NCBI GenBank assembly: GCA_046563655.1
Contig: CM102286.1
Span: 9,982,001 to 10,046,000 of the forward strand
Source: Yuukianura sp. NJ FZ-2021
Lineage: Eukaryota
Length of the DNA: 64,000 nucleotides
Direction: 5' to 3'
Part shown: in pieces, positions 29-62,959 of the stretch
Layout: the number at the start of each line of letters is the position of its first letter
How positions within the stretch are numbered: position 1 is the first letter of the stretch
Notes under the pieces: generated by a model
What the model was told of the DNA's origin: nothing
Seen by the model: the letters and a program-made list of their open reading frames with translations, nothing else
Databases searched by the model: none
Made by a program: the position numbers and the translations under genes

Positions 29-1218
29 ATGTTGAAACATTTTTTCCCAAAAGAATTTGTTCTTGATCAAGAAAGGCAATTAATTGCAAATTTGACAAAA
101 CAATTTAGCTTTAAGCTGGAATTTACATCCCCATACCATCCAATAGCAAATGGCATGATGGAACGCTGCAATAAGACACTTAAGAACGGAATTGCAAAAA
201 CCGTTGATGAAAATCAAAAGAATTGGGATTTATGTTTGGAAAGAGCAACATTTGCTTATAATGTCCAAAAGCATTTTTCAACGGAATTTTCCCCTTTTAT
301 TTGTTATTTGGCAGAGGAGCTACTTTGCTAATAGACATTGACCTGCCGAACTTTGATTCCGATCAAGAGTTCGATTTGGAAAAATTAAATCAGCATACGC
401 ATGAAGCTCAGTTAAATTCTCATAAAAATCATGAGAAAAACAAATCCAGAGACAATAAGACTCGGAAGGAACAAAAATTTCAGATAGGCGAATTGGTCAT
501 CAGATCTAAGCCAATTCTGAAAAAGGATCTTAGTAAAGTGTATATTGCTCAAAAAGATGGGCCTTATAAAATAATTAGCGAAACTAGTGAGGTTAATTAT
601 AAAATTAAAAAATTAAACAGTCGTTCCAAGAATGTAATTGTTCATGTACGAGATTTGGAACATTATCACTCTGAATTTTTGCCGACTTCTGACAGTGAAA
701 GTGAAAGTGATCATGTCAGGGAAGTAGAAAGGAAAATTATGATCAGTGGTAACAATGGGGCTAGTGGAGTCCACATTACACCTTGTAGTCTGAGAAAGAA
801 GGATAAGAGTAGTACTGTTTCTTCTCCCCCTTCTAGTTTTCGTCACTCAGCTGTCAATGTAAAAAGTAAAACAGAGTCAACGTCTAATAAGCAAATTAGT
901 TCCGGCACTAAATCGCAGATTAGTGCGAAAAGTTACAGTTCCAACTCTAGGTCATTGTCCCGACATGCAAATCTTGCAAATAGTAGTGACAGTGAAGCCA
1001 GTTATGGTAGTGTGAGTCATCTGTCGGTTATAAAAACGACGAACAATGCACGGAGTCGTGTCATTTCATCTTCGTCCTCTTCTGAAGAAGAAACTCCGCT
1101 ACCTCCGGTTCAACCTCCGACAAAGGCCAATACTCCAACCAGAAGGTCAACAAGGCCCGGCACAGTTTCGACAAAGTATGGAGTCCCACTCTTAGTCTAT
1201 GGAGACGGAGACGGATGA
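29..1218 (+). mobile_element. Gypsy-type LTR retrotransposon 3' pol: integrase core and GPY/F region plus Ser-rich tail, frameshifted near 301-331
   Basis: FTSPYHPIANGMMERCNKTLK (rve motif), W...L...FAYN...H..T..SPF, KDGPYKI (GPY/F) and VHVRDL; split over ORFs 29..331 and 301..1218; followed by a PPT and an LTR. Confidence 0.9.
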
Positions 1219-19116: not shown

Positions 19117-22100
19117 TCAATTCTGAGAGTTGGGAGTAGAATTTAGAGCAATGTTCGCATGTACGCTTTCAGCATTGTCTTCATTGTTGCGATGAAGTTT
19201 ATCATCCCTTTCCCCAATTTGATCACAAGGTTCAATACAACATGAGGAAGACCGTACATTGATTTCCAATGTAGTCTGAGTGCAAGGTTGCGCACAAGTT
19301 GTGTGCAGTATCGTAGCAGTGTCGTCTTCACCAGAGTTACGAGATTCTGATTCACTGGTCTCATGACTATCCTCGCTTACCTCAGGTATTGTTGAGTCCA
19401 TTTCTTCGTTAATTGAGGAATCAGCAGCGTTTCCCTGACCATCATTTACATCAATTTGTACTTTTGGTCTTTCTTCGATGCTTTCGTTTGCTTCTGCAAC
19501 TTCGCTTTCACTTACATGCTGAAAAGATGAAGACAAACATTGTTGCGGCTTGCGAATGCTGAGAATCTGGAACAATGAGTTAACAAGAAAAATAAGTCAA
19601 TTAGTCACACAATATTTTGTACCGTGATTGCTTCTTCTAGACGATGTAATGGAAATGAAACCTGAAGGGTCTAATTAATGCAAGAAGCCGCATTAAATCA
19701 TAGAAACTTCGCGATCTTACGTAGTTTAAGACGCCTTCGTTAAATGGACAAAGAAAAAGTTCAGAAGTTCAAATTCTTAAACGAAAGGGGTTTGCTTAGT
19801 TATGAAGGAAAACCAACTGAAATATTGAGATCGTTACGATATTTTCTAATTTTCAACTTACTTCGGGTTTTAACGGAGACGGTAGTGAAATTTCCTGAAG
19901 AGCTGGATCCTCGGCGTCAATATCTGTAGGGACCTTCCGCGTCTTGAATGTTAATGGTGTTCGGCGCAAAATATCCTCAATCTGCGACGTCGTCTTTTCC
20001 TGTTGAGATTTAGATGGAAAGTGAGATCGTAGCATTAAAACCTCTCTTCATGCACAGAAGTTCCCCATTTCAAAGGAAGCATAGAAATAAGGATTAAGAG
20101 AAAAATCATTCCAGCGAAAGCTTTATGAGCACTTCAAATACCTTAAAGACATTGCTAATGCAAATAGGTAAGTAAGAGAGTTTGAATTTGCATTTAGACG
20201 TCTCTTGATTGGCCAATAGAAGAATGATAGTTAACTTCCCCGTTGAACCTACCCGTTCGATTACTTGCACGAGGTACTAAAAGTGATTGCTTACCCGGTT
20301 TTCAGTCATCTTCCTCTTCAGAAGTGCAATATTTTGAAGCAAGTTGGTATGGCGAACTTCGATGTCACTCAAAATATTTCCCATTTCTTGCATCAAATGA
20401 ACTGACTCTGAAAAGTGCATCTCCCAGCTACCGGGTGGTACAGCTTTACCCGAAAAATATAGTTCGAATTCATCTTCCGGCATACTCAAAGATTCTGCAT
20501 TCAGGCCTTGAATAAACGTCACAGCACAGCACTGCAGAAAAATAAAGTAAGTTAGAAACTAGCTTGAATAAAGTAAGTTGATGTCTATTGAATCAAAACT
20601 AAATACTGGGAAGTTAGGTGTGTCCTTCATTATATATAGCGAAAATTAATAGTAGTGTTTTATTCTCGTTACCAAATTGGTGAAAAAATAGCCAGCTTCT
20701 CCGCTCATCAGTCGAGATGCATTGCAGAATCTGTTGATGTAGTTGATATTGCTCTGCAGTCGCGTGGGATTCGCTTTGATTACGATGTAAATGAGAGCTG
20801 GAAGAAAGTCATCAGCAGAAGTAGGACCCTGTTTTGATTTCCCCAAAGCCTTCATAATACGCGTACAACATTGAGAGATGTGATGCAGTTTGTCCTGTGG
20901 AGCTTTGACAGAATCGACTCCAATAATATCTACAATGAAAATACACAATTACTCAAGTACAGTAAAACAATTGAAGCTTTTGACAGCATCAACAGAAATG
21001 CAACTCTCCTGGAAGAAGAAAATAACCCTCTTCATTCACGTTTCACATATCAATCACTAATGCTAACGTAAAACCATTCACAATAAATTATAGTGAATTA
21101 TCAAATCTATCTAGTGGATTTTCCAAAGTCGGAATCGTTCTTGTTACTATTCCTAGCAACGCAACATGAAAAAAAAACAGTGGAGCTTTTCTACTGAGCG
21201 ATCAGCGAAAAAAATGAGCGTTATTGCAGAAATCTCACATCGCCCTAACGCTCATCGAAATTGGTTGAACAATAAAAGAAGGTAAGAAACTAAAACAGTT
21301 AAAAATATTGTAATAACTTTGTTAATTACATTGTTCAAACAATCTCCAATGTAGTTCGGGAGATGTGAGATTTCTGCAAAACGTTTGATTTTCTCGCCGA
21401 ACGCTGATCGCTCAGTAGAGAAGCTAAACTGTTTTTTTTAAAGTTAGGTTTCTAGGAATAAATAGTAGTCTTGGAACAAGACCAAGACTCTTGGCCAGAG
21501 AGACTAATTTGGAAGACAAATTGTAATGAGTTCAATTTAATTACACACCACTGCAACAACTGTTTAAAAATGACCAATGGGAATGGGTACCCGCAAAACT
21601 TGGAGAAAAAAAAACTAATACTTCTGGTAAAAAAATCCGACTTATACCACCCGAGTTGATTCACAAACGAAACTTAGTACATAGTTGCGTAATCTAATCA
21701 GAGAAGTGCATACCGTTGATGGCGGCCCATATGAAGTCTCTTACGTCCTTGTCCCGCTCATTTAGGCGGATTTCTAGTCTGTCGGTACCGATCCAATTCA
21801 GCTTCCTAATTCTGTACAAAGAAACGCAAACCGAAAAGTTATACGTAATGTCCATCAGCTGAATTCATATTTTTTGGTTTGGTATTTATCAAAATTTTAG
21901 GCACAAAAATGTTCACTGACTCACTTTGTTTGTAGTGCTAAATCCTTCGCTTCGTCGTCCATATTAGTAAAACTGGGCATGAACAACTCTTTGTAAAGTC
22001 CAATCGTGAAGTACTTCTCAATTAGATCCATTAGTTTATCCTTCTCCTCGGGCTTTACGCTCTGATAAATAGGGACGGCGTCCACTTTGCGTCTAAAGTT

Positions 22101-22929
22101 ATCGTAAAACGTCTGCACCAAATCCGACACGTCTTCTATGCGTCCTTCCTCTACCAACTTTCTGAGATCCGCTTCACATTCCTTCACCTTGACTGTGATA
22201 TCACGCCTTATTGGATTCGGGAATGGCGACAAAAAATCGTTAAACTCTTTGCGTAGTGCTTCGAATTCTACGTCGTTTGTCCGGGGAGTTCTTTCTAATC
22301 GCACTTTTTGCACTGGCTCTTTCACCTTCTGTTGTGAAGGAGAAGGAGTTTTACTAAATACTGATCGAAATGAGGAACTTTTTCTGTCTGTCTGATGACG
22401 TTTCTTCTCTTCAAACTTGGCGAAACTATTGGTTAATGGAGATGGAAACTGCAGAGAATCCAGTGACCTATACAAAAACAAGCAATGAGCAGCTTACTGA
22501 TATAAGAACAATATTAAGAAGAAATAATACGAGAACCAGATAATTGTTAACAAAATGAGAGGAAGTTAGAAAGAAGGCTAATTAGAAGGCTTACAATTTA
22601 GAAGCAGCGGCCTTAGGTAATGTAGCAAACGCCGAAATCCCAGACCTTCCGAAAAAGCTTTGAACTGCCGCTGTACCAACGTGTGAAGCTGGCTCATCTT
22701 TACTGTTTGATTCTGACTGAGCCAACTGTGCTAATTGTAGCTTTGCTTGTTGGCTTCTTTTATACTCTTTGTAGCAAACAGAACAGTATCCTTCTTGGAT
22801 TTCGTTTCCGTAGTGTCCACATCCGTTTTTACAGAGTAGGTCCTGTTGACTGATCTTGAATTTGTAGTGTCTTGAAGTACTTGATGTTGTCGCCAACCCA
22901 GAAATTGCACCTCCAGCTGATTCTTCCAT
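19117..22929 (-). CDS. RABGEF1: Rab5 GDP/GTP exchange factor Rabex-5 (A20 zinc finger, helical bundle, VPS9, coiled coil), 7 exons, ~685 aa
   Basis: Exons 22929-22595, 22467-21925, 21811-21714, 20929-20673, 20531-20295, 19999-19862 and 19566-19117 are all GT-AG and in frame (2058 nt). [11 protein letters not shown]....GYCSVC (A20), SADDFLP and [10 protein letters not shown] (VPS9), LPSPLKP C-terminal motif. Confidence 0.93.
21171..21438. mobile_element. Palindromic MITE in Rabex-5 intron 3
   Basis: AAACAG..AGCTTTTCTACTGAGCGATCAGCG...TGCAGAAATCTCACATC is inverted against GATGTGAGATTTCTGCA...CGCTGATCGCTCAGTAGAGAAGCT...CTGTTT. Confidence 0.75.
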
Positions 22930-23140
22930 GGTGGCGTGATTGTGATACCGCTGGTGTCTTCCTAGGCAGTGATCCTCCGGGTAATCGTACAGTAAGAGTC
23001 GTACTAGTCCAAAGGTGAAAGTTACAGCCTGTAACTTACAGGTACAAGTGAGTCGCACGTCAAATAGTTTAATAACTTCTGGTTTTACTCCAGTCCTTGC
23101 TACAAAAAATATAACCGCTTTATATCACAATATTCACTAT

Positions 23141-56712: not shown

Positions 56713-58036
56713 CATGGCAGCAGCATCAAAGACATCATTGGCTGATCTTCTGAAGTTACGTCAGAGCTTTGGCTACAAATCCTGATGCACAACAGGGTCA
56801 TCGCCATTTGCAATAAACAGACACCAAATCCAACAATCAAAACCGCACAACGGGAACTGATCAGAGTCAGGAATGACATGCTACACAACAAAATCATCAT
56901 CGCCACGACTAACGATGAAGAAATTAAAGATCATTCAAAGACGCACATAGAGTTTGTCACAATGATTGGAACCATGAATGAAAAGCTGATGTCACTTCAG
57001 CCAGTACCAACTCCATGCTCAGTACTCGCTCAATCAGTTTCGCCATCATCCACACTACCACATCTTCATCATGTCAACACCTAATTTCCAAAGATGAGTC
57101 TACCAACTTTCAAAAGAAAGTATGAAGACTGGCTGACATTTCGAGATCTATTCCGCAGCACAGTCATATCCAACACAACCTTACCAAACAGCGTCAAAGT
57201 TCTGGTACCTCCACTCCGCTCTCAAGGGTGAAGCCGGTAAAACCATCAAAGGTACTCCAATTTCCCATATCAACTTCCCAGGAGCATGGAAGCTGATGGA
57301 GGAACGGTACCATAACAGAAGAGAACTCATCTTTACATTGATTGAGAAACTGATTAATTTTCCGAAACTGAAGCAAGAAAATGCTGCACAGTTAAGGAAA
57401 TGAATTGACTGTTTCAATGAGGCAATTACACAGTTGGAAACACTTAACGAGCCAACAGAACACTGGGATTCCATCGTCGTCTATCTTCTCAAGGAAAAAA
57501 TGGATCCAGACTGCCGTCGTGACTGGAGCAAGCAAATAAAGGGCTCTTCCGAAATTCTCTGAGACAAAGGAATTTCTGTAAAATTATATCCGAGGACTCG
57601 AATCCACTGAATTTTTATCGTCGTTCGGATCATCCAGTCAAAGCAAGGCTCACTCCAGTTCCACTGAAAGTAAGCCAAATGAACAATCACACAAGTTCAC
57701 ATGTCCGCATTGTCAAGGTGAACATGGTTTGTTCAAGTGTGACAAAATGGATACAGTTAAGTGTGAAAGACTCGATAGAACAAGGAATACATCAACTCCT
57801 TACAAGAAAAATACAAATGGAGAAGTCCAAACCGAAATCTTGCCATCGGTGACTTGCTCATCATCGAAGCAGATGACACTCCACAACTCAAATGGCGCAT
57901 GGGCACAGTCATGAAAACGTATCCTGGTCCAGATGGACTTGTTCGTGTCGTCAAACTGAAGACGAACAAAGATTCAGTCAAACCTTCAGTCTCCAAGGTC
58001 TGTGTTCTGCTTTGGATCAGAAGATCCAAAGAGTGA
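56713..58036 (+). mobile_element. BEL/Pao retrotransposon remnant (gag joined by deletion to the integrase C-terminus)
   Basis: LPTF...YEDWLTFRDLF...YLHSALKGEA...AWKLMEERY.N (DUF1759-type gag), CPHCQGEHGLFKC knuckle, GDLLII.AD.TP.LKW.MG.V...YPGPDGLVRVV. Confidence 0.9.
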
Positions 58037-58225
58037 TGATACTGCTATTTATCGACTTAAACGACAACCATCCCGTTAGTCAATTCGCAAATCACCATTT
58101 TTACCAAGTTTGGATATCAAATTAAGTTTAATTCTAATCATACATACTGTTTGGGTGAAATGACAGTTTCATTCTTATATGGGTGTGTCGGGTTGAGTCG
58201 ATACCAGTGAGGAAGCGGTTTTCTT

Positions 58226-61056
58226 TGTAGCGTCTCGCACCGCTACTCACCAGAAATCTGGCCGCAGCCACGCCCTCAGACTCTCAATCACTGATCAGCA
58301 GATCCCACAACTGCCCAAAGACCAATAACTCACCAAAACGCTGCCAACAACAATCAGTGAATAAATGTATGAAAATATATTTATTCACTGGAATAAATAA
58401 ACAACTGAAAAACACTGATGACTACATCATATATACAACTGATCTCCTCCTCCTCTAACAACCAAAACCAGACTGACTAACTCTATACAAAACTCCTATC
58501 CTCGCTCGCTCCTCGCCTCATCTCAAATCTACCGCGAGCCACATCATCATCTCAACCTGCCCCTACTATAACACTACACTAACGCTATGGGCGAGCAGGC
58601 GTCTCACGTTCCCCCTTCCGATGGATGGCGTTCCAGTCGAACCACGGGCGACATCCAACTGCAGCAGCTCCGCAGACGACTGCTACTCCCGGATCTCTGC
58701 AACTCCATCTCCATCGGCATCATCCTCACCGTCATCTCATCATGGACATCAGCGGAGTCTTCATCATAGTAATCGTCAACCGCAGCATCGGATTCCTCCC
58801 TGATGATCCATCACGTCAACACTTGCACTTTCACTAATTTTTCTCAAAATAAACTGGATTGGAGCCCATAAATGGACTCCACTGTCACTGCATTTCCACA
58901 AATTTGCGACTCCACCTTCCATCACTTTATACGGGACAGTGAGACCCCCAACAGTCGAAATTGTAGACAATGAGCACCACAACAACACAAACACTTTGAA
59001 GCCAATGACTTGACTCCCTTACGCTGCTACAGATTCTGAGTCCTCCTTCCTTCACTTTACGGGACAGTGAGACCCAACGACTCATAATTTGTAGACAGAA
59101 CCGCAGCACTTCAACAAATAAAAAGCCAATTAATTCACTTGTACACACTTACAAAAACTTTTTTCATTTTTTCATTATTTAATCTTTTTTAGGGGAAAAG
59201 ACCCTGAATACACATAAATTTCAATAATTTCACTCTCCTGCACTGCGACAAATTCTGTGTTCCTCCTTCCTTCACTTTACGGGACAGTGAGACCCTCAAC
59301 AACACAGAACTTGAAGCGAAACAATCCAATTCAACTGATTTTTTCCAATAATTTCACTTCACTACACTTGCACTCACTTTTCATGTTTTGATTTTTGAAT
59401 TCGGAGGGATTAAGACCCTTAGTTTAGTTTTTAGCACCGTAGCACTATTAAGCTCATGATTTTGAGCTAGAGTAACGCCGCACTTCAGCAACGTGGCCGG
59501 GCAAACGCTCTCTTCTTGATTTTGAGGGATTAAGACCCTCCGTAGCAATTTTTTGTAAAAGCTCACTGTTTGGAGCTAGAGTAACACTGCACTTCAGCAA
59601 CGTGGCCGGGCGAATGCTCTCTTTAATGTGACCTCCTTGGAGACCTACATTCTGCAGTATGCCACCTTCATGGTCATACAAATTTTTACTAACAACACTT
59701 ATCACTTCACTTCTCACTGCACATTTGACTTCCTTTTTCCTATGCAGAGGATCCCGCAGTCTCCTCCACTAACTTCCCCGAACCACTATATACACATAAT
59801 TGGAGCTGCTAAAACGCAGCTCCATAAGCACTCACACCAATAATAATTTTAACTATTCACAAACTTTTTACAATGAGTGATTCACAACACTCTATTTCCA
59901 CTATGACAAAAACTTCCACCATGATTTCCACAAAAACCACTTCTTCCATAAATTTTTCTTAAATTGGAGCCAACTGGGTTGACTCCTGTGCCACTTGAGC
60001 AATTTCTATGATTTTTTAGATTAACACTTTCGTCACACTTCATTTTATCACTTTTTAAAATTTTGAATTCACTTTGTCACAACTTTGACATTTTTGGATC
60101 ACTTCAACCGCACAATCACTATCACAATCACTTATTTACATCACATATATACACTACTGCCTCCTTCTTCAGCGCGGCAGACTTTGGAACTAACAACATC
60201 GTTGGTGCTGAAGTGAAGTGCACATTTTCCAGGGCCGAAATGAGCGCCTGTGTGGGATCACTTCCAACACTCATGATTGGAGCCACCGCAGCGACTCCAT
60301 GTTCTAACTTTCGAACTAACTTCTGCATGCTTTCCACTACCACATGCATTGCCGCAGCAACAATTTGTTTTTCATCACTTGTTTAGTACATTACCATGTT
60401 TCTTCTTACTTTTGGGATTTGCCCATATGCACTGTACACTTCACTAATTATCTTCTTTTTGATCATCGGTGACCTTTGACATGATTGGAGCCACTAATCG
60501 TGACTCCTAGACACTATGAAAGCCATCGCAATGACTCCATGCACTTCCACTTTTGATGAACAACCGCAGCTGATCATGATTTTTCACTATTTTTACCAAA
60601 ATTTCGGGTCAAACGCATTTGACCTTTAATGAGCTCACTGACCTTTGGTAGTTGTCTCACGAACGGTCGCCACTGTGTAGCGTCTCGCACCGCTACTCAC
60701 CAGAAATCTGGCCGCAGCCACGCCCTCAGACTCTCAATCACTGATCAGCAGATCCCACAACTGCCCAAAGACCAATAACTCACCAAAACGCTGCCAACAA
60801 CAATCAGTGAATAAATGTATGAAAATATATTTATTCACTGGAATAAATAAACAACTGAAAAACACTGATGACTACATCATATATACAACTGATCTCCTCC
60901 TCCTCTAACAACCAAAACCAGACTGACTAACTCTATACAAAACTCCTATCCTCGCACGCTCCTCGCCTCATCTCAAATCTACCGCGAGCCACATCATCAT
61001 CTCAACCTGCCCCTACTATAACACTTCACTAACGCTATGGGCGAGCAGGCGTCTCA
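58226..61056 (-). mobile_element. Young complete non-autonomous LTR retrotransposon (2831 bp; LTRs 58226-58606 and 60676-61056)
   Basis: 381-bp LTRs with only two substitutions seen; 4-bp TSD TCTT; on the minus strand PBS TGGCGACCGT and PPT GGAAGGGGGAA; LTR termini TGAGACG...CTACA; no gag/pol motifs. Confidence 0.95.
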
Positions 61057-62959
61057 TCTTTCAGATTTAAAATAGCATAGTCAAATGCTTCCGAACTGGC
61101 TTTTGACTCAAGCCCGAACCACAACAATACACTTTTACACTAGTTCTTATGGGAAAAATGAGTTGTGTATACTTTTTGTCTTTTAGTATCATTCATTCAT
61201 TCAGAAGTCTTCTGCTGCATCTCTTTGGTTTAAGACCATAATGTTAAGAATAGAATTTTCTTTTCCTCTCAAGTATAACTGTAATTCGATTAATTAGGAA
61301 GATAAACTATTAAAAACCTAAATCATCTTCGGATTCAATTCAGAACCAGCCCTCAATTCAGTACACATTCAAACTCAAAAGTGCAATCTTCATTCATCTT
61401 GGATCTGTGCCCTAAATTTTTCCTGCTGTCTGTCAACCTTTCAACAATTTCAAGCAAACGGCAAAACCTGTCAGCTCCAGCAGGAGAGGGCCTAACCGAT
61501 TTTGAGAGGCGCTTTCTTTCAAAATATTCCCTGCACAGATCCTGGATTCATGTGGTTTTATTGTTCAATTTTATTTTTTGGAAAAATTGGACTCAGGTCT
61601 AAATTGGTTAGGTTAGGTTATGGCATGTTGGCTTTGTTGGCTAGGCATGTTGTGGCTTTTTACCACATATTTTAAAATAGTAAGATGTGCCACATAGGTT
61701 TTTAGAATGAGCGTTTACTTTTGAGCGTTTTAGGATAGACTAAGTGTTGACTTTTAGCCTTAGGTTATATGTAGCGACTCAACGGTCAAAAAAGAACAAA
61801 ACATCAACACAACATCGCAATAGCATATAGTATATAGGGAAAATGTTGACTTTGTCGGTTTCAGGCTAAAATCACAAAAGCACAAAACATTAAAAAAAAC
61901 TACTCAGTTTTACTAAAGGAATATTTCAAAAAAAATTGTAAAAATTTCATTTGAAAATGTCGTGACAAAGAAGAGCGCAGGCGAGCAAAAAAAAAACTTT
62001 TTTTTAAAAATTTTAAAAATTATGCGGTAATCCCCAACCTCTTACTCGATAGACCTTGAGGATGGCCATCTTGTTTGCAAAATGTGCAAAATCTATGTTT
62101 TCAAAATTTTGCATTTTTGGCAACATCGAAAGAAACAGTGACTGTAGTTAATTTTTGACATTTGACCTTGACCTCGACGTTGTAGCGGATTGTGGTTTGT
62201 CAGTTTTACTAAGTTTCTGCAGAAAATTGGCTTGAGATTTTAGATGTATCAACGCCATCAACTATCAACATGTTTTCAAAAGAATAAGGTGCAAGCTAAA
62301 CGTTTGGCGACATAGTCCGAGGGAGAGGGTAGAAAGAAAAATAGTTTTCAGTTTCTTTCAGGGTACGCCTGATAAAAGTTTCGCTGCGTAAGTTTCACGA
62401 TAGTTTCCTGAAAGTTTCAACCGGGAAAGGAGCGCGTGCTCCTTTCAGCTTTTTATAAAAAGCTTATAACGACATAATGTCGTTGTCGCATATGCAGTTC
62501 CCTCTCTTTTACTTTTAATCTTTTCTTCTTTTTGCCTTGCCTGTAGTTCAGAATCATACTGCGTGCTGATTTACACTTATCACAAGTAAAGTTGTACTAA
62601 CTTTTACTTTAAGCGTTCCAATAATTAAAACTATCGGAATGCCAAGACAAAAGGATCCCATCTGGGATAAATTTGACCGATTACCTAATCCGGTGGGTGG
62701 CAAAGACCTTTTCTCGAAACGTTCGGAAACTTTCAAACGAGCGCTCCTTTCGCGAAAGTAGCGCTCTTTTCCGAACCCTGGTTTCTTTTTAGCTGCAGTT
62801 TTTATTACCTCAGAGCTGTTTAAAGTTCTTGCCATTTTGTATTGGCATTATCAGGGGTCAAGTCCCTTGATTTGTGACCAGCGCCACCATTCTAGAGCTT
62901 CACCTTCCATCGATTGATGGAAGTTGTTTTATTGTTATTTTTAACAGAATGAAATTACT

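Follow-up and report, generated by a model that had tools for sequence, protein, structure and literature searches.

A repeated small hairpin in a young, non-coding LTR retrotransposon: a candidate sense-RNA motif with a possible role in packaging or dimerization

A young LTR retrotransposon without coding capacity

The DNA analyzed here (hereafter the window) is a stretch of 64,000 nucleotides from contig CM102286.1 of Yuukianura sp. NJ FZ-2021. At 58226-61056 it contains a complete long terminal repeat (LTR) retrotransposon of 2,831 bp, whose sense strand is the minus strand and whose internal region carries the seven similar hairpins that are the subject of this report. Two direct LTRs of 381 nt each, with TG..CA ends and two mismatches between them, bound the element (5' LTR, 60676-61056; 3' LTR, 58226-58606; both minus strand). 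The 5' LTR contains, in sense orientation, a TATATA starting at 60885 (LTR position 172) and an AATAAA at 60835 (LTR position 222), a placement that fits transcription of the minus strand. The letters AAGA are present at both ends of the element, upstream at 61057-61060 and downstream at 58222-58225 (minus strand), as a target-site duplication of 4-5 bp; at the empty-site joint described below, five letters can be assigned to either side. A candidate primer-binding site (PBS) that begins with TGG lies 3 nt past the 5' LTR (60656-60672, minus strand), and a candidate polypurine tract (PPT), GGAAGGGGGAA, is separated by 2 nt from the 3' LTR (58609-58619, minus strand). A tRNA gene search of the 64-kb window found none, and the LTR has no further copy in it.

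The internal region (58607-60675; 2,069 nt) has no sense open reading frame (ORF) longer than 104 aa, and its longest antisense ORF encodes 124 aa. When 11 ORFs were scanned against Pfam, 10 had no match and one gave a sub-threshold match (16 bits; cut-off, 30), while a search of protein collections with the 124-aa antisense ORF returned no homologues. Because the LTRs differ at only 2 of 381 positions, the element is young; it is a young, non-coding LTR retrotransposon, and the recent mobility proposed for it in the initial annotation is borne out by the same near-identity. An element that lacks any ORF above 104 aa and any Pfam domain, yet is young and abundant, needs a helper. Judged by its sequence, it must therefore be copied by the proteins of another element. 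The base composition of the sense strand (A 0.31, C 0.15, G 0.27, T 0.28) is G+U-rich and C-poor, with a C content of 12-15% in the LTRs and internal region alike. Across 58000-62000, a strong strand asymmetry is restricted to the element, with plus-strand GC skews of -0.29 and -0.20.

Parts of the window are found in five public sequencing runs from two studies, all as contigs, which we matched at 80% likeness. The element family is abundant, under two organism labels: there are 104-382 matching contigs per run, and in four runs the summed depths far exceed that of unique flank. Contigs from four runs join 58221/58222 directly to 61057, the form of an empty site, with five letters fitting both sides. 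Several empty-site variants exist, and a further joint, linking 58604 to 60671, is of the form that a solo LTR would give. The sequences flanking the element (58000-58221 and 61057-61300) are repetitive, their summed contig depth ranging between tens and about 1,700. The empty sites therefore probably represent further copies of the repeat that holds the element and give no proof of polymorphism. Searches of further contig collections returned nothing: the junction of LTR and PBS had 0 matches among metagenome and viral contigs, a 26-mer from a conserved internal stretch had 0 among viral contigs and contigs of prokaryote genomes, and one of the hairpins (hairpin 5, below) with its flanks had 0 among genome contigs.

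Seven hairpins with a common stem base

The hairpins, numbered here by window coordinate and written as read on the minus strand, lie between 58861 and 60538. Hairpin 1, GGAGUCCA-uuua-UGGGCUCC (58861-58880), has a folding energy of -14.1 kcal/mol (z -4.96), and hairpin 2, GGAGUCAA-guca-UUGGCUUC (58998-59017), one of -8.9 kcal/mol (z -4.38). The most stable is hairpin 3, GGAGCUGC-guuuua-GCAGCUCC (59802-59823; -18.1 kcal/mol, z -6.75). Hairpin 4, GGAGUCAAC-cca-GUUGGCUCC (59966-59986; -13.1 kcal/mol, z -4.99), has a stem of 9 pairs, and the other six have 8. Hairpin 5, GGAGUCGC-ugcg-GUGGCUCC (60279-60298; -15.3 kcal/mol, z -4.34), is capped by a C(UGCG)G apex, and its 3' arm is followed directly by AAUCAUG, which also follows hairpin 6, GGAGUCAC-gauua-GUGGCUCC (60487-60507; -14.2 kcal/mol, z -5.75). 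Hairpin 7, GGAGUCAU-ugcg-AUGGCUUU (60519-60538), is a weak copy with three G-U pairs. As these sequences are written, the loops vary among copies. The 5' arm of hairpin 7, read from the sequence, is fully complementary to the 3' arm of hairpin 6, so that arms are interchangeable between copies.

The initial annotation had placed seven hairpins at these minus-strand coordinates with all pairs kept, and we recovered them independently by hairpin enumeration. All 57 stem pairs can form: 47 are Watson-Crick and 10 are G-U, with 0 A-C and 0 other combinations, in agreement with the earlier claim that every departure from Watson-Crick pairing is a G-U wobble on the sense strand. A U-G pair at stem position 5 had likewise been noted in six of the seven, and our alignment gives the same count (U-G in six, C-G in one). 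The exception is hairpin 3. In the family contigs, position 59819 carries a G>A change that is the majority in all four runs (221/270, 1120/1120, 16/16, and 90/90 depth units) and is the one hairpin position among the best 41 of 610 variant places. This change converts pair 5 of hairpin 3 from C-G to U-G, so the family majority has the wobble in all seven hairpins. The motif can be summarized as (U)GGAGUC-NN-loop-N'N'-GGCUCC(A)AU, with the U-G wobble at pair 5.

Conservation is distributed unevenly along this motif. Pairwise identity among the copies is 0.87 over the six outermost positions of the arms (GGAGUC/GGCUCC). At the two inner stem positions it falls to 0.35, a chance-like value, though these positions are always paired. 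The three bases 3' of the stem (AAU) are also conserved, and a CCAAT is present in five of the seven. The 30-nt flanks have an identity of 0.26-0.28, the level set by composition, indicating that the seven copies are not recent duplicates. The stem base and the 3' AAU are thus kept in sequence, and the upper stem is kept in pairing alone.

Compensatory change underlies this pairing. In the arm alignment all 56 cells pair, vs 23-50% when the 3' partner is shifted by 1-3 columns, and double-sided changes occur at three pairs (7 cells). The covariation score is 0.53, vs 0.25 +/- 0.05 in shuffles, and 0 of 500 shuffles equal it. All 14 inner pairs and the one extra pair are complementary, with a chance of about 0.4 each by our arithmetic from composition. 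Structure has therefore been kept through compensatory change among the seven paralogues.

The enrichment is specific to the motif. A loose pattern, GGAGY..RCTCC, has 7 matches in the window, five of them inside the element, vs 0.74 expected, and 0 of 100 shuffles reach 7. On the internal sense strand, GGAGTC occurs 7 times vs 0.56 in dinucleotide shuffles (maximum 4 in 500) and GGCTCC 4 times vs 0.17 (maximum 3), each of the four GGCTCC words being a hairpin 3' arm. By comparison, 8-bp hairpins of any sequence show a moderate enrichment at most (9 vs 3.0, with 1 of 200 shuffles reaching 9), so the signal lies in a specific motif and not in hairpins at large. As a control, we took chance matches to the anchor words from metagenome contigs of unrelated DNA, and 12 of 13 of these had 0-1 inner pairs. 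A covariance model built from the seven hairpins and run unfiltered over all 64 kb found just these seven (E 1.8e-9 to 0.023), the next match having E 0.46. Because the training sequences match by construction, the information in this result is that nothing else in the window does.

Searching Rfam 15 with E limits of 1 and 10, we found no credible family, the histone stem-loop and transport elements included. The best matches had E values of 0.22-8.5, far under their gathering scores, and the sole one to overlap a hairpin was MIR159, at 14.5 bits (cut-off 74), over hairpin 3. A retrozyme was considered and rejected, as the Rfam search returned no hammerhead. An origin of the hairpins in tandem repeats was rejected as well: the tandem arrays present are short and low scoring, and none lies at the hairpins.

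Folding depends on the strand. Sense folding energies range from -6.4 to -18.1 kcal/mol, with z at or below -4.3 for six of the seven hairpins, and the antisense folds are weaker for six; hairpin 3, in which every pair is Watson-Crick, folds equally well on either strand. In the partition function of the whole internal region, the pair probabilities of hairpins 1 to 7 are 0.96, 0.98, 1.00, 1.00, 0.99, 0.76, and 0.33 on the sense strand, vs 0.80, 0.04, 1.00, 0.78, 0.07, 0.32, and 0.00 on the antisense strand. Over three 690-nt segments the sense z scores are -2.7, -2.5, and -2.0, vs -1.4, -2.1, and -0.9 for the antisense (30 shuffles each).

A proposed role in RNA capture and its rivals

We consider it well supported that selection has maintained a single motif, of which the seven hairpins are copies, in the genomic (sense) transcript of this trans-dependent element. 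Taken by parts, the hairpins are very probably a structure selected in single-stranded form and, given this, sense RNA is its likely form. For what the motif does, our leading proposal is a role in packaging or dimerization, to which we assign a probability of roughly 0.4. On this proposal, one RNA-binding protein would dock at every copy, and the RNA, through its array of copies, would be multivalent and able to bind with avidity. The most likely client would be the Gag or nucleocapsid of the helper, which would capture the RNA of the element into its particles. Because the element cannot do without a helper, the most parsimonious role to propose is capture by the Gag of that helper.

Several known systems provide precedents for parts of this proposal. 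Known from plants, LARD and TRIM elements are non-coding and helper dependent, and conserved RNA secondary structures are ascribed to them (PMC7215508); accounts of TRIMs extend to ants and cestodes (PMC3532108, PMC4558846). The present element resembles them in its LTRs, candidate PBS and PPT, and non-coding internal domain, in its lack of gag and pol, and in its presumed mobilization in trans. It differs in size, its 2.8 kb and 381-nt LTRs falling between a typical TRIM and a typical LARD, in its animal host, and in carrying a repeated, sequence-defined small hairpin in seven copies instead of one global fold. A second precedent is VL30 of rodents, whose RNA is reported to be packaged and dimerized in murine leukemia virus (MLV); in gammaretroviral packaging signals, hairpins with GACG tetraloops act in packaging and in dimer contacts (PMC516450). 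VL30 is likewise an LTR element without proteins; it is captured by helper particles, whereas capture is only proposed here, by analogy. In VL30 and MLV the shared feature is the GACG loop, and a hairpin pair lies in the leader. Here, the copies share a stem base with a U-G wobble and a 3' AAU, and the seven of them extend over 2 kb; none of the seven has a GACG loop. Retroviral packaging (psi) elements, such as SL2 and SL3 of human immunodeficiency virus 1 (HIV-1) and SL-C of Rous sarcoma virus (RSV), also consist of several small stem-loops in the genomic RNA that Gag or nucleocapsid recognizes, and the zinc knuckles of retroviral nucleocapsids are described as reading exposed loop guanosines (PMC7599994). 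The hairpin array thus shares the logic of known packaging systems and not their features, being distinguished by dispersed copies and conservation of the stem base. For RNA viruses with alphavirus stem-loop arrays or dispersed signals of the MS2 type, the underlying idea is likewise that capture becomes selective through the joint action of many weak hairpins that resemble one another. These replication systems are unrelated to the present one and have their conserved elements in the loops, so the comparison is an analogy only.

A number of observations weigh against a packaging array or temper the evidence for one. The conserved part of the motif is the paired stem base; the loops share no exposed G, and, unlike in the retroviral psi elements, there is no conserved loop residue among the seven hairpins. 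Only three of the seven are no farther than about 400 nt from the PBS, and the others are dispersed across 2 kb. Hairpin 7 is marginal, with a folding energy of -6.4 kcal/mol, a z score of -1.0, a pair probability of 0.33, and a covariance-model E of 0.023. Hairpin number varies in the family, which includes subfamilies with fewer hairpins: some contigs of runs X1 and X2 skip 47-82 bases within 60481-60585, removing hairpin 6 and/or 7 (joints 60481 to 60552, in X1 and X2, 60492 to 60575, and 60537 to 60585), and the module bearing hairpin 2 is replaced in two contigs, one X2 and one X4. Read by eye, the insert in the X4 contig retains the 5'-arm word and lacks a matching 3' arm. Evidence for covariation comes from the seven paralogues of a single element plus one variant of the family majority. 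Lastly, in a G+U-rich, C-poor sense strand, part of the G-U vs A-C asymmetry is expected; we count about five independent wobble events, which by our own reasoning corresponds to a p of roughly 0.03-0.08, so strand asymmetry alone is suggestive and not decisive. The selection on RNA structure put forward by the initial annotation therefore stands insofar as pairing is kept through two-sided changes and is strand asymmetric, the asymmetry being partly expected from composition.

The structural evidence would serve equally well a motif read in the sense RNA by a host protein, for nuclear export, stability, or localization of an unspliced non-coding RNA, by analogy with the transport elements of retroviruses and retrotransposons. 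Dispersal over 2 kb and a conserved stem base next to a single-stranded AAU suit a generic RNA-binding-domain site as well as they suit Gag, or better. However, the Rfam search matched neither transport elements nor the histone stem-loop, the motif was not found in the other 61 kb of the window, host genes included, and no result implicates any host protein; we regard this explanation as possible but unlikely. A different explanation dispenses with function altogether. The hairpins could be relics of a duplicated short quasi-palindrome, with pairing renewed by template switching or gene conversion and G-U pairs supplied by composition. Three diverged internal modules of 72-81% identity do exist (58880-59400, minus strand), and hairpins 1 and 2 occupy corresponding ends of two of these; C is scarce on the sense strand, hairpin number varies among family contigs, and RNA hairpins are reported to arise and to be maintained through template switching (10.1101/2021.04.15.439925). 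What makes this origin rather improbable is that copying from arm to arm would remove the pair-5 U-G, which nevertheless stands beside the varying inner pairs in six of seven hairpins and, for the seventh, in the family majority. Moreover, the arms have kept an identity of 0.87 while the flanks have decayed to randomness, unlike the neutral decay of duplicates, and every one of the 14 inner pairs and the extra pair is complementary in spite of the low chance of each.

The hairpins might instead be double-stranded DNA sites for a protein, forming an enhancer or insulator array of inverted GGAGTC/GGAGCC half-sites with a CCAAT box. Some insect LTR elements carry arrays of binding sites in their untranslated regions. 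Conservation in sequence of the outer arm words and the AAT (within CCAAT in five of seven) would fit such sites, as would the enrichment of AAGTG in the internal region (30 occurrences, vs 9.3 in shuffles). However, a DNA protein that reads sequence has no need of covarying inner positions, the spacing from arm to arm varies from 8 to 10 bp among the copies, and the two half-sites differ consistently (T vs C) in the way a wobble would, with all departures being G-U on one strand. We judge a DNA-site array to be quite improbable.

Returning to packaging or dimerization, its interest lies in how little is established for comparable elements. The copying of non-coding LTR elements by foreign proteins has largely been inferred from shared LTRs and leaders, and defined RNA signals for such trans-copying are available in very few cases. 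The candidate signal described here is compact, countable, and mutable: a 20-nt hairpin in seven copies, with a diagnostic U-G wobble, in a young and abundant animal family. If the hairpins bind helper Gag, they would provide a simple system for multivalent RNA selection and for competition between parasite and helper; if they do not, they would illustrate cleanly how a new structured RNA motif is maintained under selection in selfish DNA.

Other sense-strand words, small folds, and the surrounding window

A second word is also enriched. CUGCGG occurs 7 times on the internal sense strand vs 0.17 in shuffles (maximum 4 in 500 shuffles), at 60569, 60357, 60291, 59759, 59106, 58785, and 58675 (minus strand; span 58670-60571), and the site at 60291 is the C(UGCG)G apex of hairpin 5. 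The UNCG pattern characterizes stable RNA tetraloops, and C(UGCG)G fits it; the loop of RSV SL-C may also read UGCG, as in hairpins 5 and 7. As read from its letters, CUGCGG is self-complementary with two G-U pairs, and its antisense is not. One CUGCGG site forms part of a 10-nt quasi-palindrome that needs wobble pairs, AGCUGCGGUU (60562-60571, minus strand). A second CUGCGG site extends to a quasi-palindrome of 12 nt, UUGCUGCGGCAA (60349-60360, minus strand), which can alternatively form a mini-hairpin with a UGCG loop. The leader also contains an extra 7-bp hairpin with a UGCG loop that is not of the GGAGUC class (60607-60624, minus strand), and 5 of 12 UGCG words fall in the first 390 nt past the PBS.

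CUGCGG sites are possible dimer-contact sites. Wobble-dependent CUGCGG quasi-palindromes and interchangeable hairpin arms could add RNA-RNA contacts to the proposed protein docking and so contribute to dimerization. The hairpin loops themselves lack self-complementarity in four of seven copies, and the UGCG loops (hairpins 5 and 7 and that at 60607-60624) are self-complementary only via G-U pairs.

AAGUG, the word counted above at the DNA level, is evenly spread along the internal sense strand; its 30 occurrences compare with a maximum of 21 in dinucleotide shuffles, and its complement, CACUU, occurs there only twice. AAGUG words could be single-stranded protein-binding words or DNA-level sites. 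We speculate, as an unlikely extension of the packaging proposal, that three signals, each confined to the sense strand, belong to one capture scaffold, in which seven hairpins read through their U-G stems, seven CUGCGG sites linking two RNAs, and some 30 single-stranded AAGUG words would allow a protein-less parasite to out-compete its helper for particles. Such a scaffold would amount to a multivalent packaging code, recognized through stems and not loops, of a kind undescribed for LTR retroelements in the literature searched; a search on packaging stem-loops in non-autonomous LTR elements gave one paper, whose subject is KRAB-ZFPs.

Two 65-nt direct repeats with 88% identity lie at 59450-59623 (minus strand). 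Each contains a 7-bp hairpin whose pairs survive one-sided changes (U-A/U-G and G-U/G-C), the pairing depending on wobble on the sense strand. The last approximately 230 nt before the PPT (58607-58840, minus strand) are GC-richer, with an acidic reading of 68 aa, and contain just two AAGUG words, both at the upstream edge (58830 and 58824). This segment may be a relic of the coding end of the helper; compared with longer proteins in collections, the 68-aa reading had no homologue.

Elsewhere in the window, an open frame at 262-1218 (plus strand) encodes the C-terminal domain of an integrase (Integrase_p58_C, E 2.2e-08). This frame, which lacks the hairpin motif and any LTR similarity to the hairpin-bearing element, is a remnant of another LTR element. 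At 21921-23124 (minus strand), exon-like frames encode an A20-type zinc finger and a DUF5601 domain, as in exchange factors of the Rabex-5 type. In a protein atlas the top match of this gene piece is a mollusc cluster, a result that points to a eukaryote but is too weak for assigning the host to a group. The piece is a host gene of an animal genome.

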